The position numbers were made by a program, and so were the translations under genes. The notes beneath the pieces were generated by a model that saw nothing but the letters and a program-made list of their open reading frames with translations, had not been told where the DNA came from and searched no databases. This document shows positions 327 to 56,765 of a stretch of DNA of 64,000 nt, one piece after another (position 1 is the stretch's first letter; every line of letters begins with the position of its first letter). The DNA is from Candidatus Hydrogenedentota bacterium (GTDB lineage Bacteria; Hydrogenedentota; Hydrogenedentia; Hydrogenedentales; SLHB01). The stretch spans positions 25,144 to 89,143 of the forward strand of contig JAIBAQ010000005.1 of assembly GCA_019695095.1 (NCBI GenBank), given 5' to 3'.

Positions 327-3194
327 TCACTCACCCGCCGTAATCTCTGCGCTCTGCCCAAACGCCCCGAAACGTCGAGACTCCATACGCAAACGTGACG
401 TGCCCTTGGGGGTCTCGGGCAATGCGAATTCCACCGATTCAAATCGACCTACGCGCTCTGCCAACGAAAGACGCTCCGCCTTCGCTCCGCTAACGACCGC
501 GAGCGCACAGTCCTTGGCGTCCCAGGCCGCTTCTCCCGTATTGATGACCTCGACAATCAAGCGCCCATTCGCATAGTTCGTCGTAATTTCTGCGTTGAGA
601 CACTCGGCAGGCATGGGCAATTCATAGGGAATACCACCCAACCCCACGAAGGGGCAGTCCGTCGAAGAGGCGCGCGTTCCCGGCGTCGAGATACAGATTG
701 GTTTGTTGTTCTCGTACGCTTCGGCAGCGAACTTCGAATGCTCGGCAACGACGGCAGCGAGACCGGAGGCGTGGGCCGATACGCAAACATCCAATGTATC
801 TGCGCTGGACAATGCCAAGGGTTGAAGGTTCTTTACGTCGTCCGCGACGCGCTGCAAGACCAGCGCCGCGGGCCGCAGAGTCCCATCGGGAGCTATGATT
901 CCGAAATCGCTTCGCTCATCGACGCGGTACCCGCCCGGAAACCACCAGCCAGCCCAGCCATCGGCATTCGAACGTTTAATCATCTGCGCGAAGGAATCAT
1001 AGAGTTCGGCTTGCTTATTCAGGGCCTCCTCTCCCCCATTCCACACCGAGCGCCCAAACTCGGCCCAAAACACGGGTTTGCCATTGCCGGCCCATCGAGC
1101 GAAGTGTCCAACCAACGCGGCATCGGCGATGTTGTCGGGGCCGTAGCCGTAACCTTCAGGAGAGACAAAGTCGAGGTGGGCCGCTCCTGCGGTCAGCGTG
1201 AAGGGCATGACTTCCACCACGCCGCGCGTGCCGGTTCCGCCGTAGCCTGTCCGCGCGCCGCACAAGTGCGTGTCGTCGATCGTGCGGAGAAGTCGAATCA
1301 CTTCGCCGTAGCGCCGGCTTATGAGGTCGTCCGCGAACCGGCAATAGGCCGCAGCCATGGCCGTGTGCGGACCGTCCGCTTTCAACTGTGCGTCCGTGGG
1401 TCCGCTCACTTTCCCGTCCACGCGATTGGCCGGAAACTTCCACACGGATTCCGCGCGTTCGACACTGCCGTATTGTTCCTTCAGCCACGCCTCAAAGAGC
1501 GCGTCGTACTGTGCACGCTCCTTATACAACCCCAATCGCGGTTCCCATGCCAGGTCGTACGCAAAGACACCGGCGTTCCCGCGCAGGTCCGCCGCGCGCA
1601 GCAGTTCCAGGAAGGGCCGTTTCGACAAGTCGTCCGTGGCGCTTGGACTTGTTGGGTGGGCTCCATTGAGATAGATATTCACTTTGATGCCGTATTTCGC
1701 GCACCGCGCGATGAAGTCGCGGAGCTGAGCCGCTTCGGCAGGGCGGATATATTGAACGCTCACGCAGTTCACGCCCATCTGCTGCAATGTAAGCAGGTCG
1801 CGCTCGATGTACTCCGGTTCGTATGTCGCGAGCATGGACCAGCCGCTGAAATACTCCTTAACCTCCATCCCCGAAGTGTACAGGGGCCAGTAGTTGATAC
1901 CGTGCGCAAACCAGGGTTTTCCGTCGAGCACGAACCGTCCGTCTTTCACGGTCACGCACGGCCCATCCACAGACAGGTCCGCCAGCAGTGCCGGCGCGGA
2001 AGCGGTCTGCCGTCCTTGCACCAGCATGGCTGCAACTGCGCGCACAATGGAATCCAACTCCGGGTCGCTGGGACGCCATCCGAGCAACGTCCAGGTTGCG
2101 CCATTTTTGTGCCACGTGGTTGCAAGGGGCGTCGTGGACCAAGTACCACCGGCATCGAGGCCTTTCACGTGCGGTTGCCAAACGTAGTCGCGTTCGGGTG
2201 AGACGTGGCGTGGCCGGGCAATCGGAGAAACGGCCTCGGCCGGTGGCGTCAGGCGAATGTCCTCCCACCCCGGTGTAGCGGCCAACGTGGACACCGCCCC
2301 GCGAAACGTCTTGTAGGACGGCGACAACCCTTCCAGGAGCGGCGCGGATGCCAGAACGAAACCGGGTCCGGCTTTCGCGGTACCCAACCCGCGAAGGATG
2401 TAGGTATACGCGCCTTCGTGGACAATTTGGTGCGACGACGCGAAGCCAACGCTGATGTCGACGAGATTCTCCAAATGCGGCTGGTCGCCAGGACCGCCCC
2501 GCCCTTCGGGAGAGTTGTCTTTCCAGAAGGAGAACTGCGAGACGTGCAGTCCGACGTTGCGCTCTTCCGGCGTGAGCGGGGCAACCGCCATCCAGCGGGC
2601 GCCATCGCGTTCACGCAACTCGATCACGAGCGACGTTGCGCGTTCTCCACCCGCCACACACAGGATGATCACGTCGTGGTCCGCGGGCGCGGCGGTAACG
2701 GGAAGGCCCCGGGTCTCCCAACCGAACGGCGCCACGGCCCTGAGCTTGGCGGAATATCCGTCAGGCAATGGTGAAAATTCCGCCACGACTTGGGGCTGGC
2801 TCGTGCCTCGGCGCGGTTCGGCGGCATTCACCGCCGCCCAATCGACCAGCGCATGTTCAACAGGCAAGGCCGCCAGATAGTCCGTAGGCGCGACCATACG
2901 CCCCTCCGGATCGCGATAGACCAGTTCTTCGAAGGCGGGCCCGCCCACGGCCAACAGGTGTCCGCCGCGCTGCACAAAGCCCTCAAGTGGCGCAATGGAC
3001 GCCGCGGGAAAGACGCGCGCGTCCGGAAGGACCAGCAACGTGTTTGCGTTCAGGCCTTCGAGCTCCTCCGGATGAACGCGCCGCCACGATGCGTCCGCTT
3101 GTGTCCACGGATGCGCCTCGCCATCGTAGGCAAATACGGCCACATCCACGGGACTCGCCGAAAAGACAAGTCCCAGAATCATTGCTGCAAGCAT
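327..3194 (-). CDS. Secreted multi-domain glycoside hydrolase (TIM-barrel GH, GH5/GH2-like catalytic region)
   Basis: Long ORF 327..3482. Start refined to the internal Met MLAAMILGLVFSAS (signal-peptide-like) preceded by a GGGAAGGGGGAAA RBS-like motif. The central region GINYWPLY...GVNCVSVQYI...YGIKVNIYL...FWAEFG resembles clan GH-A TIM-barrel hydrolases. Confidence 0.55.
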   Translation of the reverse strand: MLAAMILGLVFSASPVDVAVFAYDGEAHPWTQADASWRRVHPEELEGLNANTLLVLPDARVFPAASIAPLEGFVQRGGHLLAVGGPAFEELVYRDPEGRMVAPTDYLAALPVEHALVDWAAVNAAEPRRGTSQPQVVAEFSPLPDGYSAKLRAVAPFGWETRGLPVTAAPADHDVIILCVAGGERATSLVIELRERDGARWMAVAPLTPEERNVGLHVSQFSFWKDNSPEGRGGPGDQPHLENLVDISVGFASSHQIVHEGAYTYILRGLGTAKAGPGFVLASAPLLEGLSPSYKTFRGAVSTLAATPGWEDIRLTPPAEAVSPIARPRHVSPERDYVWQPHVKGLDAGGTWSTTPLATTWHKNGATWTLLGWRPSDPELDSIVRAVAAMLVQGRQTASAPALLADLSVDGPCVTVKDGRFVLDGKPWFAHGINYWPLYTSGMEVKEYFSGWSMLATYEPEYIERDLLTLQQMGVNCVSVQYIRPAEAAQLRDFIARCAKYGIKVNIYLNGAHPTSPSATDDLSKRPFLELLRAADLRGNAGVFAYDLAWEPRLGLYKERAQYDALFEAWLKEQYGSVERAESVWKFPANRVDGKVSGPTDAQLKADGPHTAMAAAYCRFADDLISRRYGEVIRLLRTIDDTHLCGARTGYGGTGTRGVVEVMPFTLTAGAAHLDFVSPEGYGYGPDNIADAALVGHFARWAGNGKPVFWAEFGRSVWNGGEEALNKQAELYDSFAQMIKRSNADGWAGWWFPGGYRVDERSDFGIIAPDGTLRPAALVLQRVADDVKNLQPLALSSADTLDVCVSAHASGLAAVVAEHSKFAAEAYENNKPICISTPGTRASSTDCPFVGLGGIPYELPMPAECLNAEITTNYANGRLIVEVINTGEAAWDAKDCALAVVSGAKAERLSLAERVGRFESVEFALPETPKGTSRLRMESRRFGAFGQSAEITAGE

Positions 3195-3394
3195 GGTGTT
3201 TCCCCCTTCCCGTGCGGAATCCGCGCGCCTGCACCGGGTCCGAGATTGCGCGTTATCCTGGCGCGGCACGGATACGTCGCGATTATGGCGAATCCCTCGT
3301 GGCCGCGCCAATTTGTGCGCACGTGTTGATGGTCTTCGTCTTGAAAGCGGAGACAACGAATGTTCGTTGATTAAATGGCAGGGCCTTGTGTGTG

Positions 3395-3646
3395 ACCACA
3401 GAGTACCTGAACTGAGTCGGACAGCGCCTCGCTCGCCGAGCGCGGCGCTACTGAATCGCAGCCGAGGGCGGCTGCGCCACAAGGAGACCCGCCGTCAGCA
3501 AGCGCCGAGGGATGCCCGGCATGGGCCCAAACGCAACAGACCCTGCATAAGCCAACTTCCCGAAACGCGGTCCCGGTAGCGCCTCGCTCGCCGAGCGCGG
3601 CGCAGGGTATTCCGCAGCCTGCAAGTAGTGTAGATGCTGGCGGCCA
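3395..3646 (+). repeat. Repeat family R1, long copy A (~250 bp): two near-palindromic GCGCTCGCCGAGCGC-type modules around a conserved core
   Basis: Direct sequence match to 11719-11969 over ~250 bp and to 3950-4067 over ~115 bp. The core is ctactgaatcgcagccgagggcggctgcgccacaaggagacccgccgtcagcaagcgccgag. Confidence 0.85.
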
Positions 3647-3949
3647 GGGAGTCGGCCCTGACTCGGCATCGGACAGCACGTGCTCTCGTTCACTACTCAC
3701 ACCGTGTGTTTCTCCTGCGCGCCGCACGGCGTAAAACATAACAGCCTGGCGCGGCATCGCCGCAACCAAAAGAGACTCAACCACCGATATACACCGACGA
3801 TTTGACTCGATCCTCCAGAGCGCTGCAAGCGCGAAATACTCCAGCCTGGGGTGAGATGCGCGTCTTGGACGCGAATCGAAACCCCAGGTACCCGCCCTCA
3901 CCCAACGTGAGTCCTGTAAGGACGAAAGCAACTTATGCCGTCCACTTCT

Positions 3950-4067
3950 TAGGAGCCACGACAGAGACCTCGGTTATCCGCGCCGCGCTCGGCGAGCGCT
4001 GCGCTACTGAATCGCAGCCGAGGGCGGCTGCGCCACAAGGAGACCCGCCGTCAGCAAGCGCCGAGAG
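3950..4067 (+). repeat. Repeat family R1, short copy B (first module only)
   Basis: gccacgacagagacc...cgccgcgctcggcgagcgctgcgctactgaatcgcagccgagggcggctgcgccacaaggagacccgccgtcagcaagcgccgag is near-identical to the 5' halves of copies A and C. Confidence 0.85.
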
Positions 4068-4302
4068 ACGCCCACTCTTCCGACGCGTGTGCGCATGATG
4101 ACGCACTTTAGGAAAAGGCCCCCTCCGGGTATAATCGCGGAGGTGGGATGGCAGCCGCAGCCAAGTTTGGGGGAGTATGTCGAACCGTACCCACAATCGG
4201 TGGGTCTCGAAGTCTCAGCAGTTGCGTTGTCTCACTTCCTATGCTATCAGTAGCACGAAGACGACTTAACGACGGTCAAGCCGTCAAGCTGTAACGGGGT
4301 CC

Positions 4303-5550
4303 ATGAGTACAATCGAGCCAGAGCCAGAAAATCTCTCCGCCGAACCCGCGCCGGATGTATGTGCGCATTTTGGGGATTGCGGCGGGTGCCAATCGCAGAA
4401 CGTACCCTACGAAAAACAAGTCCAGGCGAAAAGCGAAGCGCTTAGCGCGTTGTTTCGCGCGCACTGGGAAACGACCATTCCCGTCGCGGAGTCGCCAACC
4501 ATCTGGCACTACCGGAACAAGGTCGATCCCAACTTCGGACGCATGCATTACCCGGAACCGCCGCCAAAGGGATTCGAACGCGAGTTGGTACTGGGGTTCA
4601 AGCGGCACGGGAAATGGTTCTGGACGCTCGACCTCGCGGAGTGCCGCATCGCCCCGGAAGGAATGGACACGCTCGTTGCAGCCGTGCGCGCGTGGGCAAA
4701 AGAACGGAAGCTGACCGCATTCAGTTCGAAGTCGAAGGACGGGTTTCTGCGGGCGTTGCTGGTGCGCGAAGGCAAACGCACCGGGGAACGCATGGTCGTG
4801 CTCGTCACGCACAAAGGCGACCTCGACAAGCAGTCGTTTGTGGATACGGTGCAGGCCGTGTTTCCGTGCCAGAGCATCCAGTGGGCCGTCTATCGCGGAG
4901 ACGCGGAAATCACCGCGGCAGACCAACTGGAGTTGCTGTATGGGAAGCCGTCCATCGAAGAGGTGTTGCACATCCCCGATTCGCGGTTCGAACGCAAACT
5001 GAAGTTCAAGTTGTCGCCGTTCAGCTTCTTCCAGACCAACAGCCTCGCCACCGAACTGCTCTACGGGCAGATTCGCGCGTGGGTGCGCGAGTCGCGCCCG
5101 AGCGTGCTCTACGATCTCTACGGCGGTTCCGGCGGCATCGCGTTTAGCTGCGCCGACTGCGTTGACCGCGTGGTATCGGTGGAAAGCGAAGAGTCTGCGT
5201 CCGTGGACGGCGTCTTCAACCGCGAAACCAACAACATCGACGACGTAATCTTCCTGACGCAGAAAGTCGAAGACTACCTTCGCGAGACCTTGTCCAAGCA
5301 AGGCAAACTGCAATCGAACAACCTTGTCGTGCTCGACCCGCCCCGCGCGGGACTCCACCCCAAGGCCCTGAAGCGGCTGATGATGCTCGAACCCAAAGAG
5401 ATCATCTACGTCTCCTGCAAACCCACCGTCTTCGCGGAAGAACTCCCCGCGTTCCTCACCAAATACGACATCCGCGACATGCGCGCCTTCGACCTCTTCC
5501 CCCACACCGAACACGTCGAACTGCTGACGAGGCTGATGCTGAAGGGATAG
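4303..5550 (+). CDS. Class I SAM-dependent RNA (uracil-5)-methyltransferase, RumA/RlmC-like with Fe-S motif and no obvious TRAM domain
   Basis: An N-terminal CAHFGDCGGCQ 4Fe-4S cysteine motif of the RumA/RlmD/RlmC family. The C-terminal methyltransferase core has DLYGGSGGIAF (SAM motif I-like) and VLDPPRAG (motif IV). Confidence 0.75.
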   Translation: MSTIEPEPENLSAEPAPDVCAHFGDCGGCQSQNVPYEKQVQAKSEALSALFRAHWETTIPVAESPTIWHYRNKVDPNFGRMHYPEPPPKGFERELVLGFKRHGKWFWTLDLAECRIAPEGMDTLVAAVRAWAKERKLTAFSSKSKDGFLRALLVREGKRTGERMVVLVTHKGDLDKQSFVDTVQAVFPCQSIQWAVYRGDAEITAADQLELLYGKPSIEEVLHIPDSRFERKLKFKLSPFSFFQTNSLATELLYGQIRAWVRESRPSVLYDLYGGSGGIAFSCADCVDRVVSVESEESASVDGVFNRETNNIDDVIFLTQKVEDYLRETLSKQGKLQSNNLVVLDPPRAGLHPKALKRLMMLEPKEIIYVSCKPTVFAEELPAFLTKYDIRDMRAFDLFPHTEHVELLTRLMLKG

Positions 5551-5816
5551 CTAGAGCGCGCGCAACGTGACTTTTCTATCGGCCCACACCCGCAAGAGCG
5601 CCGAATAGGAGCAGACAAGACACGACGGCCCCATGCCTTCCTGAGAAAGTCGCGCGTTCCTATTGCCTTCTCGCTGCACTGCCATGTAGAATGTACTATA
5701 TGAGGTTTAACCTTACCTAGCACGTTTGGTCAAACGCAGATTTTGCACATTCACCGTTCCGGCTCGGGGGAGACTGGAAAGGCCGCACAGTGCGGTCCGC
5801 GTAAAGTGGGGCAATC

Positions 5817-8045
5817 ATGTTGACAAGCAATCGTGTAAGGGGAATTGTTCTTCTCGCTCTCGTGATATGCGGTGCAATTGCCGTCTTCCTTACGGGGCAT
5901 AAGACCAGCGAACACATTTCACCAACGCCCAAAACTTCATCGAATAATGTCGCACGATCAGCCTCGCCGAGCTTAGGGGAAGACTCAGATGCTTCCGCGG
6001 TCATTTCAGGGGCAGTTCGAAATCGCCTGACGCAAGAGTCCTTACCTGGTGTGGAATTGCTGCTGCGCGGGAAGGCTGGCGAAGCCGAACGAAGCGAAAC
6101 AGGTGACGATGGGACATACGAGTTTCGTGACCTGCCGCCCGGCGAGTATGTGCTGGAATTCTACTCCCCATCAGGCTTGGTTGAACGAAACCCTGACCTG
6201 ACGAAACGTACTGTCGTGGTGACAGCAGGAGAGAAGGCCAAAGTGGACCTCCTGTTGGATGCCGGCGCAGTCTACGCTGGTCTTGTAATCGACGCCGCAA
6301 CTCAAGCAGTCGTGCAAGACGTGACCGTTATCGCCACGGCAGAGGAGCATTCTCGAGGATATGGCAAAACGAACAATGAGGGCCATTTCTGCCTCATGGC
6401 CCTGCAGGGGGAACTTGAGTACGATGTAGTCGTTAGTAGTGAAGATTATCTCCGGTACACCAAAAAGATCTCCCTTCCCGCTCAGGGTTTTCAGAGTGAC
6501 TCGATTTCGCTGGTACGCGGTTCGGTAATTCAAGGAAGACTTCTCCTTTCCAATAACCAACCCATTGATACAGCGTACGGGTTGGGGAGCATCCGTATCT
6601 CGCTGGAAAACGAGACGGGAACTGAAGTGGCAGGGCCCTCCTCCCAAGTACCTCCCAAAGACAGTCCGCCCGCCCCCGGCACCTTCCGGTTCTCGTTGCT
6701 TCCGACGGGCACGTATTACCTAAAAGCCCAGTGCTATCTCGTACCGGGCTCAGCCTTGAATGGTAAGACCTTCTACCGCGACGAAGCTGTGGTCATACGG
6801 CGTCCCGGCGAAACGGTAGAGGCAGACTTGGCACTGCCTTTTGAAGCGGGTGGGACGGGCAGTATCGAAGGAAGAGTCGTTACAGCAGAAGGGAAGCCGG
6901 TCGCGAATGCGTCGGTCGCGCTTAAGGAGTATCCTCTGGAGACTAGACAGCGGACGGATAGTGAAGGGCATTTTGCACTCCCCAATCTGCTTGAGGGGGC
7001 ACGGTTCGATATCATCGCCCGTTTCGCCTATCACGACTACAAAGAGGAAACCGCCGGGCCCACTCAAGCCGAGGTGACCGGAGTTCCTGTCGGCAAGCGA
7101 AACCTCCGTATTGTGTTGCCGCTTTCTGGAAGCCTGGCTGGGGTAGCCGTGGACAAGGATACCGGCGGCGTCCTTGCGCAGGCAACGGTAGAAGTCGCGC
7201 GAGAATGCATACGAGACGAAACTGGCCAGTTCATCATGCCGAACTCCATGAGAGAAATCGCCCAGACCGATCCGGACGGCTTCGCTGTCCAGTTCCTCAC
7301 ACCTGGAACAGTCACAATTTGCGTCAGTAGTCCGGGGTACTACGCGGTGCGGGTGCCGGATATCCGGATCGAAAGCGGCCAAACAGCCGATGTGGGGCGG
7401 GTTCTGCTTTCGAAGGGAATTCCTGTTCAATTCGAAGTGTATTACGCCAAAGGGTTCTCTGGAAAGCTCTACGGTATTAACGTTTTCACTGCTACGGGCG
7501 GGTGGGCCGAACCCAGTATTGAAGAAAGAGAAGGTCAGGAGAATCCGCGCGTTTACGACGTGTCGATTTCGCCGGGATCCTATCTGGTTACCCCTCTCGT
7601 CGAGTACGAGGGCAGTCCCTGGGAAAGGAGCTACCACAATATTGAAGTGGCGGCCGCTTCCCAGACGGGCAGTACTCAGGTTTTCAAGTTTACCATCGGT
7701 AGCGATACGGGCGAAGTATATGGGGTGATTGAGAACGCGCTCGACTATCGAGTGGAACAGATCTATCTGGCGCGGCAGCAGCAGTGGCCCTACGCGCCCA
7801 ACGAACCCAATGTCAATGCTCGTTTCTATGAAGACCCTACGGCAACATTTCTGATGAGAGAACAACGGCCTTCCGAAACCGGTACATTTCGCTTTGAACA
7901 CTTGCCGGCGGATACCTATGGAATCCATGTTGTATATCAAGACCCCCGGACAGGGGAAAAGCGCGTTGAATCCACGCCAGTCACAGTAGGAGACGGAGAG
8001 ACTTCGGAGGTCTCGCTGAGTCTGCGCGGCGGGGATACAAGCTAA
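5817..8045 (+). CDS. Membrane-anchored protein with multiple carboxypeptidase-regulatory-like (Cna-B / Ig-like) repeats
   Basis: N-terminal TM helix (IVLLALVICGAIAVFLTG), then repeated G.V....G.P..G..V.L...GE..RSETGDDGTYEFRDLPPGEYVL-type modules (DGTYEF, SEGHFALPNL, ETGTFRFEHLPADTY). Lower GC than its surroundings. Confidence 0.5.
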   Translation: MLTSNRVRGIVLLALVICGAIAVFLTGHKTSEHISPTPKTSSNNVARSASPSLGEDSDASAVISGAVRNRLTQESLPGVELLLRGKAGEAERSETGDDGTYEFRDLPPGEYVLEFYSPSGLVERNPDLTKRTVVVTAGEKAKVDLLLDAGAVYAGLVIDAATQAVVQDVTVIATAEEHSRGYGKTNNEGHFCLMALQGELEYDVVVSSEDYLRYTKKISLPAQGFQSDSISLVRGSVIQGRLLLSNNQPIDTAYGLGSIRISLENETGTEVAGPSSQVPPKDSPPAPGTFRFSLLPTGTYYLKAQCYLVPGSALNGKTFYRDEAVVIRRPGETVEADLALPFEAGGTGSIEGRVVTAEGKPVANASVALKEYPLETRQRTDSEGHFALPNLLEGARFDIIARFAYHDYKEETAGPTQAEVTGVPVGKRNLRIVLPLSGSLAGVAVDKDTGGVLAQATVEVARECIRDETGQFIMPNSMREIAQTDPDGFAVQFLTPGTVTICVSSPGYYAVRVPDIRIESGQTADVGRVLLSKGIPVQFEVYYAKGFSGKLYGINVFTATGGWAEPSIEEREGQENPRVYDVSISPGSYLVTPLVEYEGSPWERSYHNIEVAAASQTGSTQVFKFTIGSDTGEVYGVIENALDYRVEQIYLARQQQWPYAPNEPNVNARFYEDPTATFLMREQRPSETGTFRFEHLPADTYGIHVVYQDPRTGEKRVESTPVTVGDGETSEVSLSLRGGDTS

Positions 8046-8046
8046 C

Positions 8047-9426
8047 TTGTCTGATCTACGAAACAGGGAGACGGATATTGGACTGGTCAACGTGAAGAAG
8101 CGGCTACGACTCCGAAGCTGCCTGTGCGTCGGATTCTCGTGCGGGGTCGTTAGCCTGGCCGGTGTGTTCCTGTGCTTTCTTCTGGTTGTAAGAATTGCAG
8201 GTTTCGACGTTGACATGAAAACTCTTCCCTCGTTTATTCACGGTCTCTTCGTCAATTTCCGGAGTTGGACCGCCGAATTCGTCGAACCCACCGATTACCC
8301 TCAATTCTTCACTGTGGTGGCCTGGAATGACTCGATTGTTGGAGTCAACACGAAAAGTACAGAGACGCTGATACGCACAGGCGGGATGCGGGTGGACGGA
8401 GGCACAGTGCGGCGCTGCTTCGAAGACATCAAATCTGGTGTGTCCGAGGATCTAACTCCGTTGTTTTGCCCCATCAGCTTCGATTCGCCAACAGTGCCGA
8501 TCGAAGTGCCGTTCGTGGCCTTTGGCAGAGAGCGTCAGCCCGGTTATGGCGCGGGCCTACCGGGAAACCCCGTGGAGAATGAGACATCGGAAGACGTAGC
8601 GCCATTGAGACTTCTTGCGGGAGTCGACGGACCTACTCCCTACTATACCGTGACACCGCGTGTTTTGTTGGACACTCGGCCTTCCGTGGCTTGGATTGAG
8701 AAACACAACGAGAAAGTGAACTTACTGTGTCTTCTGTCGGATGAGCGAAGTTGCCGTGTCATTCCAACGGATTATAGACCGGATCAACTCGTGGCTGGGC
8801 CAACATGGTGCGACAAGCGTGAACTGTGTCTTCTTGTAAAGGAAGCGGAGAGCGATGCACTAGACCTGGTTCTGGTCTCAATGGCGGACACAAATACAGA
8901 TGTCCAGAGAAGGCGAATCATCGTCCACCTCCCCGCGAAGCCACGGAATATACTCGTGTTCCAAGTTGCACGCGTCGGATTGAGCCACGTCATCCGTATA
9001 GACTCAAGTCTGGATAATGATCTCTATGAATTTGCCGACTGCCTGTTGTACCTGAGACACACAGGTGAAGTGGAGCGTATCAATTGCCAGGATCGGATCC
9101 GCTATCTCTCCCCTTCCGGTACCCATGTATCCTGTGAAGAAGATTCGGAATATGCTCTCACGCATTGGATCTGCAAACTTGACATCGAAACCTTGAGTCT
9201 CACGCGCGTATTGGTAGTAATTGGAGATCCATCGCTTTCTGGATGGGACCAGACGGAGCGGTTTTACGTATCGGCCTTCCATGTATTTCCCCGCTGGACA
9301 AGGCTGTGCGTGCATATGTACGACTTGGAATCAAAGAGGAAGCTACGCCGACTTTCGATTGATAGATACCCGACGGACGACCCGGCGGTCATGGTGGGGT
9401 CTAACAGTGAATTGATAAGAGACTGA
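8047..9426 (+). CDS. Hypothetical membrane-anchored protein (no recognisable domain)
   Basis: Starts 2 nt after the upstream stop, so it is translationally coupled. N-terminal hydrophobic segment VGFSCGVVSLAGVFLCFLLVV. Lower-GC codon usage shared with its neighbours. Confidence 0.4.
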   Translation: MSDLRNRETDIGLVNVKKRLRLRSCLCVGFSCGVVSLAGVFLCFLLVVRIAGFDVDMKTLPSFIHGLFVNFRSWTAEFVEPTDYPQFFTVVAWNDSIVGVNTKSTETLIRTGGMRVDGGTVRRCFEDIKSGVSEDLTPLFCPISFDSPTVPIEVPFVAFGRERQPGYGAGLPGNPVENETSEDVAPLRLLAGVDGPTPYYTVTPRVLLDTRPSVAWIEKHNEKVNLLCLLSDERSCRVIPTDYRPDQLVAGPTWCDKRELCLLVKEAESDALDLVLVSMADTNTDVQRRRIIVHLPAKPRNILVFQVARVGLSHVIRIDSSLDNDLYEFADCLLYLRHTGEVERINCQDRIRYLSPSGTHVSCEEDSEYALTHWICKLDIETLSLTRVLVVIGDPSLSGWDQTERFYVSAFHVFPRWTRLCVHMYDLESKRKLRRLSIDRYPTDDPAVMVGSNSELIRD

Positions 9427-9500
9427 GGCGAAGTGTTGGATTAAGCGGACAAGATGCAAAGAGTGAAGACATCGCAAAGCACAGATGCGGTGATTCACGA

Positions 9501-10433
9501 TTGAATAGTCAACTGACAATTAGCGCTACCAAAACGAATCGGGCCTTGCGAATGGCAAAGAGACTAAGCGTGGCTACAGTCATAATCTGCATGGCTGTCG
9601 CGGTCGTATATTCCGCCTCCAGACTCATCTCTATCGTAAGACACGATATGTTCCCGAATGTCAGTTCACCGGCATCGGCGGCGAACGCGGCGATCCATGT
9701 GCCCGAATTCAACAAGAAAGTCGCCGTCGGGCCGTGTATCGCGTATGGCGACGCCGTGTTGCCGTATTTGGAAGCAGAGTCGTCAAACTACACGCAGCTC
9801 TATCACGGTTCACATAGAAACGTCGCGCTCATCCTGAGCGGAATCGATTCCCCCAAATCACTTGCAGTTCTACGCGAGTTGTATTCGCGAGACCAATTAT
9901 GGGCGAAAGAAGCGGGAATGCTGGGACTTGTTCTATGTGGACAATTTAATGAACCCGTACACGAGGGGGCGTTTATCGTACAAGACATAGACGAAGTCAA
10001 AGCCACCGCTCTAGCATTGCTCGACCGTAAAGAAGCTGTCCCGTTCCTTATAAGCTCGCTCCAGTCCAGCAAGCGAGACTTCTGGGCCCACACCAAGATT
10101 ATGGAGGCACTTGGCGCGTTGGGCGACCAGACGTCGATTGAACCGTTACGCAACTACTTGCATGACAAGACTGTTTTCGCGTTGGACGGGGCGTTTCGGG
10201 CACTGATTATGCTTGGCGACCGAGATGCCATACCGATTACCATCAAACGTATTGAACCGGATATGGATGACTCTCAAGCCCTTGTAATTCCCTCGTTGGA
10301 ACTGGTCACGCGGCAGAACTTTGGCCGGGACAGGGAAGACTGGCAACGCTGGTGGCAGGGTGCTCAAACCTCCTTTCGAATCCCTCCAGAAGCCATAGAA
10401 ACGTTTCGGAAAGATGCTCTTCGTGTACCGTAG
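9501..10433 (+). CDS. HEAT/PBS-lyase-like repeat protein with N-terminal TM anchor
   Basis: TM segment VATVIICMAVAVVYSA followed by HEAT-like repeats (LISSLQSSKRDFWAHTKIMEALGALGDQTSIEPLRNYLHDKTVFALDGAFRALIMLGDRDAIP). Confidence 0.5.
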   Translation: MNSQLTISATKTNRALRMAKRLSVATVIICMAVAVVYSASRLISIVRHDMFPNVSSPASAANAAIHVPEFNKKVAVGPCIAYGDAVLPYLEAESSNYTQLYHGSHRNVALILSGIDSPKSLAVLRELYSRDQLWAKEAGMLGLVLCGQFNEPVHEGAFIVQDIDEVKATALALLDRKEAVPFLISSLQSSKRDFWAHTKIMEALGALGDQTSIEPLRNYLHDKTVFALDGAFRALIMLGDRDAIPITIKRIEPDMDDSQALVIPSLELVTRQNFGRDREDWQRWWQGAQTSFRIPPEAIETFRKDALRVP

Positions 10434-10485
10434 GGTCTCGGCAATTCCAGGTTACATGCCTTACGAGATGTCAAGTTGTTGTTTG

Positions 10486-10519
10486 GCGCCTTGGCGTCTT
10501 TGCGTTTCCTCTTGATTTG
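10486..10519 (+). repeat. Short repeat R3 copy 1 (ggcgccttggcgtctttgcgtttcctcttgatttg)
   Basis: Near-identical 34-bp match to 10781-10814 (one mismatch, g vs a). Confidence 0.8.
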
Positions 10520-10769
10520 CGTTTCTTCTTGAATTGATCTCAACTCAAGATAAGTCGCCAGGATACACCGGCTGTCCGCGTATGACCACTCATTCATTGT
10601 CTTCGTGCTGTTGCGGTGATAATCGAAGAGTCGTTACCACCAAGGCACGATGACACAAAGAAGATAACCCAAAAAGACTCAAGGGTACACAAGTCCACTC
10701 ACGCCTTGCAGACCAAGTATCAATCCTCAGTATCCATGTTGGATATGGATAGCGGCGACGTGCCTTACT

Positions 10770-10845
10770 TTGCGTCTTTGCGCCTTGGCGTCTTTGCGTT
10801 TCCTCTTAATTTGATTTCAACGCAAAGGCGCGAAGACGCCAGGAT
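10770..10845 (+). repeat. Short repeat R3 copy 2 embedded in an imperfect hairpin (ccttggcgtctttgcgtt ... aacgcaaaggcgcgaagacgccagg)
   Basis: Contains the 34-bp R3 unit plus an internal tandem tttgcgtctttgcg duplication and a downstream inverted-repeat arm. Confidence 0.7.
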
Positions 10846-11381
10846 GCTGCGTCAGTCCGCTTGCTACCACTCGCTCATCGCCTCCTTGTCCGGCCTGTCC
10901 CTTTCATTCGCCACGTCAGTGCAACGACTCTGCGCATATATGTGAGGTGCGTCACAAACAGAGTGGGGTTCTTACAATGTCGTTGCAGATACTTTCGCCA
11001 CTCCGCGTATGCTCGCGGCCAGGCTTCGGAGAGTCGGAAGTTCACCGGATGACCGGAATGACTCCCATAAAACGGCCAGGGACTCCCGGTTCCGGGAAAG
11101 GGGGGTGTCCCGTACGAATATGGACAGCCGTTCGCGGGTTTTCAAGAAACGCCATCCGCTCTAACTCATTTTTTCACAGGCGCTTACCCGACATCGTGCG
11201 CCGGTGCGCGCTCGGGGGGCCCCCCTTGCCCCGTCAAAACACATCGCGGGGCACCCCCCTTCCGAGAGTCCGGAGGCGTCGATTCTTCCGCGGACTACCG
11301 TCTCGCGGAAGACTCCTGTTGTCAATCTTGGCCGCAAGAGTACATGCTTAACGTGTGCACACCAATCGGAGGCCACCCAGC

Positions 11382-11642
11382 ATGAAGGTCACCCTTTCAG
11401 ACCTGCGTCGTAATCCCGGGAAGATCGTCGAGGCGATCAAGCGCGGCGAGACGGTCACGCTGTCCAAGCGCGGGAAGGAGATTGCATACATCATTCCAAA
11501 GCACTCGGCAAAGGCACCGATGTCGGCGTCGATCTCGGTCTCGTCATGTTCCGCTATTGGAATGTGGAAAGACCGTGAAGACATGAAAGATCCCTCGACC
11601 AGGACTACAGGGGATACAGGTCCCTATTCCTCAAGATCGTAG
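11382..11642 (+). CDS. Type II antitoxin, Phd/YefM (prevent-host-death) family; orphan, with no adjacent toxin gene
   Basis: MKVTLSDLRRNPGKIVEAIKRGETVTLSKRGKEIAYIIP matches the Phd/YefM N-terminal fold signature. GGAGG-like RBS (caatcggaggccacccagc ATG). The C-terminal GMWKDRED motif is the kind seen in antitoxins of VapC/PIN partners. Confidence 0.65.
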   Translation: MKVTLSDLRRNPGKIVEAIKRGETVTLSKRGKEIAYIIPKHSAKAPMSASISVSSCSAIGMWKDREDMKDPSTRTTGDTGPYSSRS

Positions 11643-11718
11643 AAAAGTTACGTATTGGGGGAGTAAGTTGTTGAACGGCTGCGTGTTGGCCATGGTTTAC
11701 GGATTTGCTTGGATGTGC

Positions 11719-11969
11719 TGAGCCACGACAGAGACCACGATTAACCTGCGCCGCGCTCGGCGAGCGCTGCGCTACTGAATCGCAGCCGAGGGCGGCTGCG
11801 CCACAAGGAGACCCGCCGTCAGCAAGCGCCGAGGGACTCCCGGCGTCGGCCCAAACGCAAAAAACTCTGCATGAGCCGACTTCCCGAAACGCGGTCCCAG
11901 TAGCGCCTCGCTCGCCGAGCGCGGCGCAAGGTATGCCGCAGACTCCAAGTAGTGTAGCTGCTGGCGGCC
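11719..11969 (+). repeat. Repeat family R1, long copy C (~250 bp)
   Basis: Collinear with copy A (3395-3646) over its full length, in the same orientation. It lies immediately downstream of the orphan antitoxin. Confidence 0.85.
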
Positions 11970-12104
11970 GCGAGAACAGTGGCGCTTATTTGGTTCGTTT
12001 ATCGGAGTTCATCGGTGTTCATCCGTGGTTGAATCTCTTCTGGTTGCGGCTGTGCCGCGCCAGGCTAAGGGAATTTCTTCCCAACGTAGATCGGAGCGAA
12101 TCCA

Positions 12105-13073
12105 ATGTCGGCTTCATTCGTGGTCTTCATGGCGCTTGCGGCGGGTCCCGTTCTTGGTGTCGATTCATCCCGCTTTACGCTCGATGAGCGGCCCGCGTTT
12201 CTGCTGGGTATTAGCTATTACGGGGCCTTGGCCATCGAGGACAAGGCGATTGTGGCGGGCGATCTCGACGAGATGAAGGCGCTCGGCTTTAATTGGGTGC
12301 GGGTATGGGTGACGTGGAATGCATTCGAAAACAACGTGAGCGCCGTCGCGCCGGATGGCTCGGTACGGCGGCCGTATATGGACCGCTTGCTGCGACTCTG
12401 CAAGCTTGCGGGTACGCGCGGCATGGTGGTCGACGTGACGGTGACGCGGGGCAAGGCTCCGGATTTTCCGAGCACCATGGCGGAACATGAAGCCGTGATG
12501 CAGACCTTGGCCCGCGAACTAAAACCGTATCGCAATGTCTATTTCGACGTGGGGAACGAGCGCAACGTGGGCGATGAGCGCCATGTGCCGATGAGCGAAG
12601 TGGGCCGTCTCGTCGAGTCGATCAAGCGCATCGATCCGGACCGGCTGTGTACCGCGTCGCAGGGCGGCGACATCAGCGACGAGGAATTCGGCAACTACCT
12701 TGAAACGGGCAAGGTGGATTTCGTCGCGCCGCATCGTGGGCGCTACGCGGGCAGCGCCGCGGAAACCGGCGAGACGACGCGGCACTATCTGGACTTGATG
12801 AAGGGCGGACGCATCGTGCCGGTGTTGTATCAGGAGCCGTTCCGGCGCGGGTATGCGGATTGGGAACCGAAGGCGGACGACTTCAGAACGGACCTCGAAC
12901 AGTCGAAGGCATCGGGAGCCGCAGGCTGGTGCTTTCACAACGGGTCGGTACGCAGCGGGAAAGGCGACGAACGCCCGCGACGGTCTTTCGACTTGCGACC
13001 GGAGGAAGGCAGATTGTTCGACCAATTCGACGCGGAAGAACGCGCGTTCCTTGACTCGCTCAAGAAACGCTGA
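12105..13073 (+). CDS. Secreted GH5-like (clan GH-A) glycoside hydrolase
   Basis: Signal peptide MSASFVVFMALAAGPVLG. GFNWVRVWVTW and YFDVGNERN (catalytic-acid NE motif of GH5-type TIM barrels). Confidence 0.6.
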   Translation: MSASFVVFMALAAGPVLGVDSSRFTLDERPAFLLGISYYGALAIEDKAIVAGDLDEMKALGFNWVRVWVTWNAFENNVSAVAPDGSVRRPYMDRLLRLCKLAGTRGMVVDVTVTRGKAPDFPSTMAEHEAVMQTLARELKPYRNVYFDVGNERNVGDERHVPMSEVGRLVESIKRIDPDRLCTASQGGDISDEEFGNYLETGKVDFVAPHRGRYAGSAAETGETTRHYLDLMKGGRIVPVLYQEPFRRGYADWEPKADDFRTDLEQSKASGAAGWCFHNGSVRSGKGDERPRRSFDLRPEEGRLFDQFDAEERAFLDSLKKR

Positions 13074-28038: not shown

Positions 28039-28157
28039 CGGTGACGCGCATCACATGGCCATCGCGTCATCGCTGGCCACATAAACTCGCCGGGCACACG
28101 CAGGCCAGTGTGTCACAATGGTCAGGGCTCGTCAACCGCGTGTGGAACGACCACCTA

Positions 28158-28343
28158 CCCCGGATTTTTCACGAACATACTTGAACCTCTCTCGTAACCA
28201 ATGTGTTTGCGAGACTTGCGGCGAAATACAAATCGGTTCTCCAAAAACGGAGTGTGTTCGCGAGAAATCCTCAAGGCATAACCTCAACGTCTTGCACGTG
28301 AGCATTTTGCGTCGGCGCTCAATCGCGCCAGTGCAAATTGCGG
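28158..28343 (+). repeat. Repeat family R2 copy 1 (~186 bp) with internal 17-bp inverted repeats (ggatttttcacgaacat / gtgttcgcgagaaatcc)
   Basis: About 88% identical to 56184-56369. It sits immediately 3' of ppk, between it and the acylase start. Confidence 0.85.
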
Positions 28344-28344
28344 A

Positions 28345-30360
28345 CTATTGCTGCGCGGAGAGTTTTTTCAAGTACCGATAGGTCTCGATCTGCGACCCGT
28401 GTGTGCTGGACCCATCGCGCACGTATTGGTTCGACTGAAACTCGTCCAATACACGCGCCTTATACTTGTCCGCGACTTGGAGTCCCATGACATCCACAAC
28501 CTGTTGCTGCAATTCCGGATCGTATACCGGGAATGCCGCTTCGACTCGCCAGTCAAGGTTGCGTTCCATCAAGTCAGCAGAACTGAGGTATACAAGGCGG
28601 TCCTTGCCTTTGCCGAAGATGTAGCACCGCTGGTGTTCGAGGAATCGGTCCACAATGGAAATGGCCCGGATATTCTTATGGGGCAGGACGGCATAGGTCG
28701 TGCGAACAATGAGGTCCATCTTGACGCCGGCATCGGCCGCTTTGCCCATTTTCTTCAGGATCTTGCTGTCGGTGAGGTGATTGACCTTGAGAAAGACATA
28801 ACCGTCTTCGCCTTTGGCTTTCTCGCGGGCCAGTAATTTCAGGAACATCTTGCGCGAATTGAACGGCGAGATCATGAGATGCTTGAGCTTGGGCATGGGC
28901 ATGGTGCGCATCTTGGAAGCGCCATCGAAGACTTCGAAGACTTCGTCAACTTCGGCGGCAAGCCGCTTGTCAACCGTGAGCAGCAGGCTATCGACGTAGA
29001 GCTTCCCTGTCACCTCGTTGAAGTTGCCGGTGGAAAGCCCGGCGTAAAGGACGTTGTTGCGCTTGATGAGCAACAACTTGCTATGGACCTTCATGGGGGG
29101 CATGCCGAACGTGATTCGCGCGCCCACTTCGGTGAGTTGTTCGGCGATTCGAAGGTTGTTCTTTTCGTCGAACCGCGCTTGAAGCTCGATCGATACGAAT
29201 ACTTTCTTACCGTTTCGGGCCGCGTTTATGAGCGCATTGACGATGTGGGAGTTTCGAGCGGCGCGGTAAATGCACATTTTGATTTCGTCGACTTTGGGGT
29301 CGATGGCCGCCTCGCGCAATAGACGAATTAGATGGTCGAACGATTGATACGGGTACGTAACCAGCAGGTCACGGCTCTTGATGGTTTCAAGCATTGGCTG
29401 ACGTACGCGGTCCAGCACGGGATGCGGAACGGGCGTGAGCTTCTTAAACGACATCTCGGGACGGTGATTGGGGAACTGCATGAGGTCTCGCATATTGTGG
29501 TAACGTCCGCCGCCAATTAGGGCGTCGTCCACTGTAATGCGAAGTTCCTGGCGCAGCAGTTTCAGCAATCCCGGTGGGATTTCCTCGTCATAGACGAGCC
29601 GTGTCGGGCGGCCGCCTTTTCGTTGTTGAAGAACGCGCTCCATCTTGCGCGCATAGCCTTCGCTGAAGTCGTTGTCAATGTCTAGCTGCGCGTCTCGCGA
29701 GATTTTGAATTCAAACGCTTCGATTCGTTCGTATTCAAAGATATAGAAGACTTCATTCAATTGATGACGAATCACGTCATCGATATACATGATGTTGCCG
29801 TTGGGGAGTTCGACGAAACGCGGCAAGTCGGACGGAATCTCAAGGATGGCGTAGATAGGCTTCTTTGCCCACATTTTGACGGCAAAGTACAGCGCCCCGT
29901 CATTCAACTGGGGGAATGGCTGACCGTCGCGAATAATGATTGGCACAAGGCTGGGCAGTACGTGTTCCCGGAAAAATTCCTGAAGCCACTTGGCGATACC
30001 GTCTGTACTCTTTGCTATGTCTTTCTCGGTGAGGATTCGCACGCCTTCGGCCGCCAGGGCTTTCGTGATTTCGGCGTAGGCAGCGCGGGATCGTTCGTCA
30101 AGCTCGCGCGACTTGTCCGCGATGCTTTCAAGAAGGGCCATCATGGTCTTCTCGCCGAGTTCGATTCGGCGCTGAATACTTGCGACTCGCACCTTGAAGA
30201 ACTCGTCCATGTTGGAGGAGAAGATACCCAGGAACTTAAGCCGCTCCATGAGCGGGTTCCGAGCGTCTTCGGCCTCCTGCAATACGCGTTCGTTGAAGGA
30301 GAGCGTGGAGATCTCGCGAATCTGAAAGAGGTTCTTAATGAATTGCTCTTGCGCTTTCAT
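28345..30360 (-). CDS. ppk: Polyphosphate kinase 1
   Basis: Collinear with E. coli PPK1 (LSFNERVLQEA, MDEFFKVRV, GGRYHNMRDL, VSIELQARFDE, HSKLLLIKR, LSSADLMERN). Confidence 0.95.
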   Translation of the reverse strand: MKAQEQFIKNLFQIREISTLSFNERVLQEAEDARNPLMERLKFLGIFSSNMDEFFKVRVASIQRRIELGEKTMMALLESIADKSRELDERSRAAYAEITKALAAEGVRILTEKDIAKSTDGIAKWLQEFFREHVLPSLVPIIIRDGQPFPQLNDGALYFAVKMWAKKPIYAILEIPSDLPRFVELPNGNIMYIDDVIRHQLNEVFYIFEYERIEAFEFKISRDAQLDIDNDFSEGYARKMERVLQQRKGGRPTRLVYDEEIPPGLLKLLRQELRITVDDALIGGGRYHNMRDLMQFPNHRPEMSFKKLTPVPHPVLDRVRQPMLETIKSRDLLVTYPYQSFDHLIRLLREAAIDPKVDEIKMCIYRAARNSHIVNALINAARNGKKVFVSIELQARFDEKNNLRIAEQLTEVGARITFGMPPMKVHSKLLLIKRNNVLYAGLSTGNFNEVTGKLYVDSLLLTVDKRLAAEVDEVFEVFDGASKMRTMPMPKLKHLMISPFNSRKMFLKLLAREKAKGEDGYVFLKVNHLTDSKILKKMGKAADAGVKMDLIVRTTYAVLPHKNIRAISIVDRFLEHQRCYIFGKGKDRLVYLSSADLMERNLDWRVEAAFPVYDPELQQQVVDVMGLQVADKYKARVLDEFQSNQYVRDGSSTHGSQIETYRYLKKLSAQQ

Positions 30361-56164: not shown

Positions 56165-56183
56165 GGCACCATCTCGCCGTTAG

Positions 56184-56369
56184 CCCGGATTTCTCACGAA
56201 CACACTTGACCTTTTCTCGTAGCCAGTACGTTTGCGGGACTTACGACGAAAAACAAAGCGGTTCTCCGAAAGAAGAGTGTGTTCGCGAGAAATCCTCATG
56301 GCATAACCTCAACGTCTTGCACGTGAGCAATTTGCGTCGGCGCTCAATCGCGCCGCTGCGAAATGCGGG
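56184..56369 (+). repeat. Repeat family R2 copy 2 (~186 bp)
   Basis: About 88% identical to 28158-28343, including the 17-bp inverted repeats (ggatttctcacgaacac / gtgttcgcgagaaatcc). It fills the gap between convergent gene ends. Confidence 0.85.
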
Positions 56370-56765
56370 TTAGTGGGAACACGTGCAGGTATGGTCTCCC
56401 CCATGAATGTGGCCCGAGAAATAGGCGGCCGCGGCATCTTCGGGAGATGCTTCGGGATTCACCATGAGTGGAGTAATCCCATGCTCCTTCAATTCGCTTG
56501 CCGCGCGTGAACCCATACCGCCGGCTATAACTGCTTCGCAATCGTGCAGCAAGGCCATGAGATCCGCGTGGCCATGATGCTCACCGTGAGCGTGGCCCTC
56601 GCCGTGTCCGCAGCCCACGTGGGATGAACATGCATGGGTGTTGGCGCGTGCTTCCCTTCGGACGATTTCGTTTGCCTCCAAATCGTAAATCAAAAAGCAT
56701 AGGCTCCGTCCGAAGTGCGTCGAAATGCACTCGCCGTCCGACGAGGCAATAGCAATACGTTTCAT
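56370..56765 (-). CDS. NifX/NafY/NifB-C-terminal-like cofactor-binding domain protein (dinitrogenase FeMo-cofactor biosynthesis domain family) with His-rich insert
   Basis: MKRIAIASSDGECISTHFGRSLCFLIYDL and CEAVIAGGMGSRAASELKEHGITP match the PF02579-type fold. The insert is CSSHVGCGHGEGHAHGEHHGHAD. Start position approximate (the Met at about 56763-56765). Confidence 0.7.
   Translation of the reverse strand: MKRIAIASSDGECISTHFGRSLCFLIYDLEANEIVRREARANTHACSSHVGCGHGEGHAHGEHHGHADLMALLHDCEAVIAGGMGSRAASELKEHGITPLMVNPEASPEDAAAAYFSGHIHGGDHTCTCSH

Follow-up and report, generated by a model that had tools for sequence, protein, structure and literature searches.

R1, a probable composite repeat of GTAG-tagged REP units in a Candidatus Hydrogenedentota bacterium

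The intergenic repeat R1 is found in a 64,000-nucleotide stretch (the window) of the genome of a Candidatus Hydrogenedentota bacterium (assembly GCA_019695095.1, contig JAIBAQ010000005.1, positions 25,144 to 89,143 of the forward strand). Self-comparison of the window gives three copies of R1 on one strand: copy A (3397-3645, full length), copy B (3953-4073, truncated) and copy C (11720-11969, full length, 250 nt). R1 is likely to be a composite, non-coding repeat made from the repetitive extragenic palindromes (REPs) of this bacterium, which carry a GTAG tag. The named homologues of the RlmD protein encoded in the window (among hundreds of homologues) are from Candidatus Hydrogenedentes, and the window also encodes DUF1501, DUF1549 and DUF1553 proteins. 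Loci and contigs outside the window are cited below by L numbers.

The R1 copies and their genes

Copies A and B are located in a 1.1 kb gap (3195-4302) between a leftward gene (955 aa from 327-3194, the mechanical open reading frame (ORF) spanning 327-3482) and the rightward rlmD gene (4303-5550, + strand, PF05958), copy B being 230 nt upstream of rlmD. Copy C is in the gap 11643-12104, 78 nt downstream of a Phd/YefM antitoxin gene (11382-11642, + strand) and 136 nt upstream of a GH5-like gene (12105-13073, + strand). The gene context given in the initial annotation, with copy B 5' of rlmD and copy C 5' of the GH5-like gene and 3' of the antitoxin gene, is therefore correct.

Copies A (3424-3645) and C (11748-11969) are 92% identical over 222 nt. 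Copy A contains a REP on the - strand (A-left, 3424-3451, GTAGCGCCGCGCTCGGCGAGCGAGGCGC read on the - strand, DNA hairpin of -12.9 kcal/mol), a 124-nt spacer or core (3452-3575, + strand), a REP of the canonical variant v1 on the + strand (A-right, 3576-3603, GTAGCGCCTCGCTCGCCGAGCGCGGCGC, DNA hairpin of -11.8 kcal/mol) and a right tail (3604-3645, + strand) which is kept in copy C past the REP with 5 differences in 42 nt. Its left extension (3397-3423) weakly resembles the left extensions of the other two copies. Copy C has the same layout: a REP of variant v2 on the - strand, with its GTAG towards the spacer (C-left, 11748-11775), a core of 124 nt (11776-11899, + strand), a v1 REP (C-right, 11900-11927, + strand) and a right tail (11928-11969, + strand). 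C-left and C-right pair in a 36-nt inverted repeat (11742-11777 / 11898-11933, 89% complementary). Copy B consists of a left extension (3953-3979), a v2 REP on the - strand (B-left, 3980-4007, GTAGCGCAGCGCTCGCCGAGCGCGGCGC) and the first 66 nt of the core (4008-4073); it matches copy C at 95% across 122 nt and then ends, and this truncation is identical in the strain contigs L001 and L075. A 63-nt stretch of the core is invariant in the three copies, and the sole invariant inner hairpin is the 8-bp CGCAGCCG-AGGG-CGGCTGCG (3457-3476 in copy A).

GTAG-tagged palindromes in the window and across the phylum

The initial annotation described R1 as a repeat with near-palindromes flanking a conserved core, and this description is borne out by the presence of five palindromes in the three copies. 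The pattern GCGCTCGCCGAGCGC with at most two mismatches is present at five places in R1 (3429-3443, 3584-3598, 3985-3999, 11753-11767 and 11908-11922); it has 11 strand-wise matches, versus 0.86 expected, a number equalled by 0/100 shuffles. A stricter 21-nt pattern has five matches in the window versus 0.00 expected.

Each of the five units, read on the appropriate strand, is composed of GTAG followed by a 24-nt imperfect palindrome, 28 nt in all. The tagged palindrome is written GTAGCGCCTCGCTCG-C-CGAGCGCGGCGC, with the GTAG tag unpaired. The right arms of copies A and C (v1) read GTAG-CGCCTCGCTCG-C-CGAGCGCGGCG-C, and the left arms of copies B and C (v2) read GTAG-CGCAGCGCTCG-C-CGAGCGCGGCG-C, so that the canonical body with a central C is found in four of the five units. 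As single-stranded DNA or RNA, the units are predicted to fold into a hairpin of 10-11 bp with one internal mismatch, a 3-nt loop and an unpaired GTA tail, the energies for DNA being -11.8 to -13.1 kcal/mol. GTAG-type REPs are defined by precisely such an unpaired GTAG tag next to an imperfect palindrome (Di Nocera, De Gregorio and Rocco 2013, PMC3733652). In copy C, the v2 (- strand) and v1 (+ strand) units are inverted, 124 nt apart, with their tags inward; they form a tail-to-tail (TT) heterodimer whose linker is 92% conserved between copies A and C, as in the mosaic of bacterial interspersed mosaic elements (BIMEs). Copy C thus resembles a BIME or a REPIN (an inverted REP doublet), with two REP variants placed tail-to-tail around a conserved spacer. 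In BIMEs such a mosaic is bound by host proteins (IHF, gyrase and Pol I).

The same unit is found elsewhere in the phylum. The 21-nt pattern GCTCGSCGAGCGNNGCGCTAC was scanned across 185,579 species (one genome per species) and gave 68 loci: 15 from Hydrogenedentota, 7 from a metagenome-assembled genome (MAG) labelled 'Chthoniobacterales', and 46 scattered over GC-rich taxa. The 15 loci belong to six Hydrogenedentota MAGs, namely SJ475 (6 loci; this MAG has at least six exact-pattern loci), NC_groundwater_378 (5), and NC_groundwater_1878, AMX-MBFR-82, SO_2017_GW1_155 and SJ408 (one each). A scan of metagenomes added four further units, and the 28-mer was present in three metagenome contigs. A test that does not depend on the pattern asks whether the seven bases upstream of it complete the palindrome: 4-7 of the 7 positions do so in the Hydrogenedentota loci, versus 0-5 (median 2, the chance level) in the 46 loci from other taxa. 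This test replaced the length of the longest open frame over the site as a measure of intergenic position, which was discarded because it is uninformative in GC-rich DNA.

When the Hydrogenedentota units are aligned on the tag, they show sharp boundaries and unrelated flanks, and many of them are identical to v1 or v2 over 28 nt. The v1 28-mer of A-right is identical in L013, L015, L022, L027, L035, L070 and L071, and the v2 28-mer of C-left in L026 and L040. GTAG is present at nearly all of these units, the variants GTGG and GTAC being seen once each. Across 10 REP variants, 90.9% of the cells are paired, and three of the 10 distinct variants have T-A or A-T in place of C-G at the stem pair 5-27, a count reached by 4 of 500 shuffles. 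Outside the window the REPs occupy intergenic positions. They occur as singletons just past stop codons (L013, L019, L070, L073), as head-to-head (HH) dimers (L015, L019, L065, L073) and as TT dimers (L072, in addition to copy C). Four units follow one another head-to-tail (HT) in L026 (84-265), with a 49-nt period and near-identical linkers of 21 nt. This array is a REP cluster; a CRISPR was considered and rejected, the 'spacers' being identical.

The v1 REP of the MAG SJ408 (locus L065) is identical over the canonical 27 nt, its last base alone being different, and the RlmD of this MAG is only 66% identical to that of the window. The REP core is thus kept essentially letter for letter across a deep divergence within the phylum. 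A REP/BIME-like element was the option named first in the initial annotation, and it is the one that agrees with the unpaired GTAG tag, the units with unrelated flanks in Hydrogenedentota genomes and the inverted pairs; the other two, a small RNA and a recombination site, are not supported.

Some features of the outside loci may be mentioned here. In the MAG SJ475 and in one metagenome, a REP stands 20-40 nt past the stop codon of a multi-copy gene (L013 1012-1986, L019 5-553, L070 ~2190-2360), whose product has 324 aa, a HGGxSTG domain (NF041373) and the end ...FLPRFHxVYPMKLSG; a short half-repeat, GTAGCGCC, stands ahead of the REP. The REP dimer of L072 has a spacer of 1 nt and lies inside a 21-nt inverted repeat, which has CTAC/GTAG at its own ends. 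The seven loci of the 'Chthoniobacterales' MAG SRP141376_co3_36 (L009, L030, L034, L037, L041, L047 and L056) carry a GTAG element that is related to the REP but differs from it, namely a head-to-head heterodimer GTAGGGCTCCCTCGCCGAGGGGGCC ... GTAGCGCCCCGCTCGCCGAGCGGTCGG which has the CTCGCCGAG centre in common; its frequent position at contig ends suggests a high copy number in that genome.

The left arm of copy A differs from the other units. According to the initial annotation, the first palindrome is flipped between copies, as if the arms of the stem had been exchanged. The difference is real, and it involves exactly three positions between the left arms of copies B and C (GCGCCGCGCTCGGCGAGCGCTGCGC) and that of copy A (GCGCCTCGCTCGCCGAGCGCGGCGC): the base at the centre, plus one in each of the arms that carry the mismatch. 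However, the left arm is better read as having been converted by the right arm than as exchanged with it. A-left is identical to the right arm (3578-3603) at 26/26 positions in direct orientation. Read from its own GTAG, its centre is G and its mismatch G.A, instead of the C and T.C of the canonical v1: the body of the palindrome is flipped relative to the tag. Among the Hydrogenedentota units that have a complete palindrome, no other was seen to have a flipped body of this type. It is most simply explained by a short tract copied, through conversion or template switching, from the right arm or from a different v1 unit on the + strand; this is feasible since the near-palindromic REP bodies align at 88% in either orientation.

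In E. coli, the REP is the substrate of a REP-associated transposase, and its recognition is made strand-specific by the GTAG tag, the mismatch in the stem and the loop; TnpA-REP binds the REP in a strand-specific manner and does not process the inverse REP (PMC8266576). Strand-specific recognition is known for the E. coli, Stenotrophomonas and Marinomonas enzymes (PMC8266576). By analogy with these enzymes, A-left, in which the strand of the loop and mismatch does not fit the tag, would be comparable to an inverse REP carried on a tag, and is probably inert. More generally, if the Hydrogenedentota REPs behave like those of E. coli and Pseudomonas, a REP-associated HUH tyrosine transposase (RAYT) would recognise their hairpins on single-stranded DNA, in a strand-specific way, and would spread or maintain the REPs. 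As by-products, the hairpins might act as transcription barriers, 3'-end stabilisers or recombination substrates. The 250-nt R1 unit as such may be mobile.

Coding potential, RNA structure and mobility of R1

R1 is non-coding, as the initial annotation proposed. The 18 differences between copies A and C are distributed 4/7/7 over the codon positions, without codon-position bias. Two frames are open across R1, with non-synonymous changes in 11/16 and 10/16 of the differing codons, and non-synonymous changes prevail in every frame; no synonymous bias is seen. The ATG of a short ORF in copy A (3521) is GTC in copy C and is therefore not conserved, as had been noticed. No Pfam family is found in the ORFs 3371-3931 (-), 3933-4196 (-), 11705-12187 (+) and 3193-3579 (+), the first three of which had already been regarded as spurious, and a translated open frame of copy C has no homologue among 5.8 billion proteins.

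It is very improbable that R1 is a structured small RNA or a cis-regulatory leader, the function of which would reside in the 124-nt core while the REP-like stems serve as clamp or terminator. Copies B and C are upstream of + strand genes, the 63-nt stretch and the 8-bp hairpin of the core are invariant in the window, and copy C folds as RNA far beyond shuffled sequences on both strands (-133.8 kcal/mol, z -5.9, on the + strand; -154.7 kcal/mol, z -6.6, on the - strand). However, the excess stability of copy C arises because its REP arms pair, and the core of copy A folded alone is at shuffle level (z 0.06 and -0.64) apart from the invariant hairpin. The differences between copies A and C are non-compensating. 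The GGCGG...CCGCC stem initially proposed in the core is not supported: L075 rewrites 8 of 14 core bases (GACCCGCCGTCAGC -> GAAGCATCCCCGGC), which destroys CCGCC and keeps GGCGG, with no compensating change. Rfam has no known family for R1, as was checked: nothing matches in the window at the gathering thresholds, and the sub-threshold matches at E<=1 are at chance level, none of them credible for R1. No tRNA or tmRNA was detected by scanning and no promoter-like site was found for R1. The genes downstream of copies B and C (rlmD and GH5) are unrelated. A TATAAT-containing promoter stretch of rlmD (~4125-4150) is recognisable in the relative L074 too, so that copy B is upstream of the promoter and outside the rlmD mRNA; moreover, L074 has no R1 at either locus. 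Separately, a sub-threshold Rfam match to the Acido-Lenti-1 RNA (23 bits versus a gathering threshold of 37, E 0.01) is located between copies A and B, at 3819-3850 (- strand).

L074 (GCA_041859475.1) is the closest assembled relative, with 89% protein identity for RlmD and 83% DNA identity for rlmD. Upstream of rlmD, its homology with the window begins at 4245, and R1 is absent. The gene order in L074 is rlmD, antitoxin, PIN toxin, GH5 (L074 11415-12080 versus window 11382-12104); in the window the PIN gene is missing, R1-C and the companion repeat R2 are found in its place, and the Phd/YefM antitoxin is an orphan. The ~5.8 kb between rlmD and the antitoxin gene (5551-11380), which encode among others a CarboxypepD_reg protein and a HEAT-repeat protein, are absent from L074 and replaced by different genes in L075, and thus form a strain-variable island. 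The strain L075 (a Logan contig, 94.6% identical) has copy B and differs downstream of rlmD. It follows from the comparison with L074 and L075 that R1 is located at synteny breakpoints and is gained or lost between close relatives. The contigs L001 and L075 both begin inside copy B, L075 immediately after the REP, which fits a repeat that breaks short-read assemblies.

R2 has two copies of 58 nt, 86% identical and in opposite orientations: copy 1 (3743-3800, - strand) is 97 nt past the right end of copy A, and copy 2 (12009-12066, + strand) is 39 nt past that of copy C and ends 38 nt ahead of the GH5 start codon. R2, which may be part of R1, was not found in any of the fetched loci. Other repeats are present in the window. 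In a gene-poor stretch (10434-11381), a 37-nt repeat, TTTGCGCCTTGGCGTCTTTGCGTTTCCTCTT..., has two copies (10483-10519 / 10777-10813, 95% identical), with a partly complementary stretch at ~10822-10842; L075 ends inside this repeat, which suggests that it is multi-copy. Another intergenic repeat (28156-28350 / 56181-56375, 195 nt, 86% identical, same strand) contains no REP unit.

A bolder view appears improbable to us: R1 would be a lineage-specific, non-autonomous 250-nt element with subterminal REP hairpins and a functional core, which remodels the loci where it resides, and the flipped arm would result from a flip-flop of the hairpin in vivo. If this were the case, the PIN toxin of a Phd/PIN pair would have given way to R1, which would also mark the edges of the 5.8 kb insertion, and the core might function, for example, as a REP-clamped small RNA or as a protein-binding platform.

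A miniature transposon derived from an insertion sequence (IS), mobilised by a transposase encoded elsewhere, is hardly plausible. It could be either a miniature inverted-repeat element (MITE) with terminal inverted repeats (TIR) and target-site duplications (TSD), or a derivative of IS200/IS605 with subterminal hairpins. The 36-nt inverted repeat of copy C, the subterminal position of the hairpins (27 and 42 nt from the ends, as at IS200/IS605 ends), the two hairpins of copy A, which are direct copies, and the presence of an IS200-type TnpA ~190 nt from the REP dimer of L072 would agree with it. So would a 9-nt direct repeat, TCGGACAGC, which brackets copy A (3417-3425 / 3669-3677; 17/2000 shuffles equal) and could have arisen as a target duplication, as a recombination scar or by chance. 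On the other hand, the inverted repeats are not terminal, no flanking direct repeat comparable to that of copy A is present at copies B and C, and the left junctions have no target word in common (...GTGCT| versus ...CTTAG|). BLAST searches of plasmid and phage records gave no match to R1, and the window contains no transposase. The TIR/TSD type of MITE was rejected because the inverted repeats are subterminal and there is no consistent target duplication; an integron attC site was rejected too, since there is no integrase.

A local segmental duplication is unlikely, yet several observations speak for it. In this case the REPs would be host-functional hairpins (terminators or protein-binding sites) under selection, nothing would be mobile, and the copies would result from recombination in a rearrangement-prone region of 9 kb. 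The region is indeed a synteny breakpoint with respect to L074 and L075, all the copies are within 8.6 kb on one strand, and no consistent target duplication is seen. Against this, the identical 28-nt REP is present in six or more species, where the intergenic contexts are unrelated, and this is difficult to explain unless the REP was copied or sequence-specific selection was very strong; the tandem and inverted multimers (L026, L015, L072) resemble the dynamics of REP clusters; and the breaks of L001 and L075 inside copy B are expected of a repeat that is multi-copy in those samples.

The reading of R1 as a REP-based composite also has to face a series of results that weigh against it, three of which (the conserved sequence past the REPs, the absence of the core words from the collections scanned and the RAYT that was not found) also favor a segmental duplication. 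The element had been called dispersed, which is shown over 8.6 kb only: the 25-nt near-palindrome occurs five times in the 64-kb window, always inside R1. No REP was found in 79 kb of Hydrogenedentota DNA fetched via rlmD, that is, not chosen for REPs, and the copy number of the REP appears low. The conserved sequence continues past the REPs, 27 nt leftwards (B and C) and 42 nt rightwards (A and C); in contrast to a REPIN, the duplicated unit is therefore not bounded by the REPs. The spacer is conserved and, at 124 nt, longer than those of REP TT dimers, which are usually variable and of 20-100 bp (PMC3733652). The 22-nt core word GCGGCTGCGCCACAAGGAGACC, whose last two bases differ in L075, is absent from all the genome and metagenome contigs scanned, and a 28-nt core word is absent from all the viral contigs scanned, as is the REP pattern. 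Because these core words are absent from the collections scanned, R1 as a whole could be a local duplication and not a mobile unit; the long R1 unit is seen in this lineage only.

The search for a RAYT gives a further point of this kind. The 93 ORFs located at most 1.5 kb from the REPs of 19 loci were scanned with Pfam, and the whole loci and the window were searched by tblastn with two probes; neither the 64-kb window nor the Hydrogenedentota and metagenome loci that were fetched yielded a RAYT. The first probe, an E. coli RayT sequence, found nothing and is insensitive, as it missed the TnpA of L072 too; the second, this TnpA, matched only itself. The sole Y1_Tnp protein among the 93 ORFs is a 129-aa protein of the L072 region 260-946, encoded ~190 nt from the TT REP dimer, and it is a TnpA of the IS200/IS605 type: it scores 146.6 bits with NF033573 versus 42.8 bits with the RAYT model (cut-off 80). 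Mobilisation by such an enzyme is therefore an inference from the E. coli and Pseudomonas systems.

R1 compared with known repeats

R1 resembles the ends of IS200/IS605 elements and their miniature derivatives in its subterminal imperfect hairpins, which follow a guide tetranucleotide, and in having neither terminal inverted repeats nor a regular target duplication. It differs from them in that the hairpins are inverted in copies B and C, the left junction has no common target word and no TnpA or TnpB is encoded nearby in the window.

The similarity to REPINs (Bertels and Rainey 2011, PMC3116915) lies in the inverted REP doublet, which can be folded into one long hairpin, and in a REP sequence that is kept across the species of a lineage, as it would be in a vertically inherited REPIN-RAYT system. 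In contrast to REPINs, the conserved unit of R1 exceeds the REPs, the GTAG tags are inward, and no cognate RAYT was found in the loci examined. The conservation of the 28-nt unit, letter-perfect between genomes whose RlmD proteins are ~66% identical, is what a vertically inherited REP-RAYT partnership predicts, and the Hydrogenedentota lineage is a possible test case for this type of inheritance.

The closest similarity is to the GTAG REP families (PMC3733652), the nearest being those with mismatched stems of 12-13 bp, such as GTAG-24. Like the R1 units, these REPs are imperfect palindromes of 20-40 bp, with the terminal GTAG unpaired, one stem mismatch and a minimal loop of 3 nt. They are intergenic and often just past a stop codon; like the Hydrogenedentota units, they occur as singletons, HH, TT and HT dimers and tandem clusters, and like R1 they form heterodimers of units that differ in stem residues. 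Unlike theirs, the sequence of the R1 unit is not in the published consensus families as far as checkable, its copy number appears low, and the TT spacer is long (124 nt) and conserved instead of variable and 20-100 bp long. Hydrogenedentota are outside the survey of PMC3733652, and a text search of the searchable literature found no paper with the REP 13-mer. The present analysis extends GTAG-type REPs to this uncultured phylum, which the published surveys do not cover. It also explains three spurious ORFs and several assembly breaks, and flags a rearrangement-prone region with an orphan antitoxin.

R1 does not reveal a new mechanism: REP-based composites of this kind have long been known in Proteobacteria and in several other phyla. 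What is unusual is the long conserved spacer in a TT dimer, the flipped arm and the association with the loss of a toxin gene. With its much longer linker, and with three copies seen, all within 8.6 kb, R1 departs from the BIMEs of E. coli, which are made of Y and Z REPs and conserved linker motifs, but it shares with them two opposed REP variants, a conserved linker and a mosaic structure at several intergenic sites.

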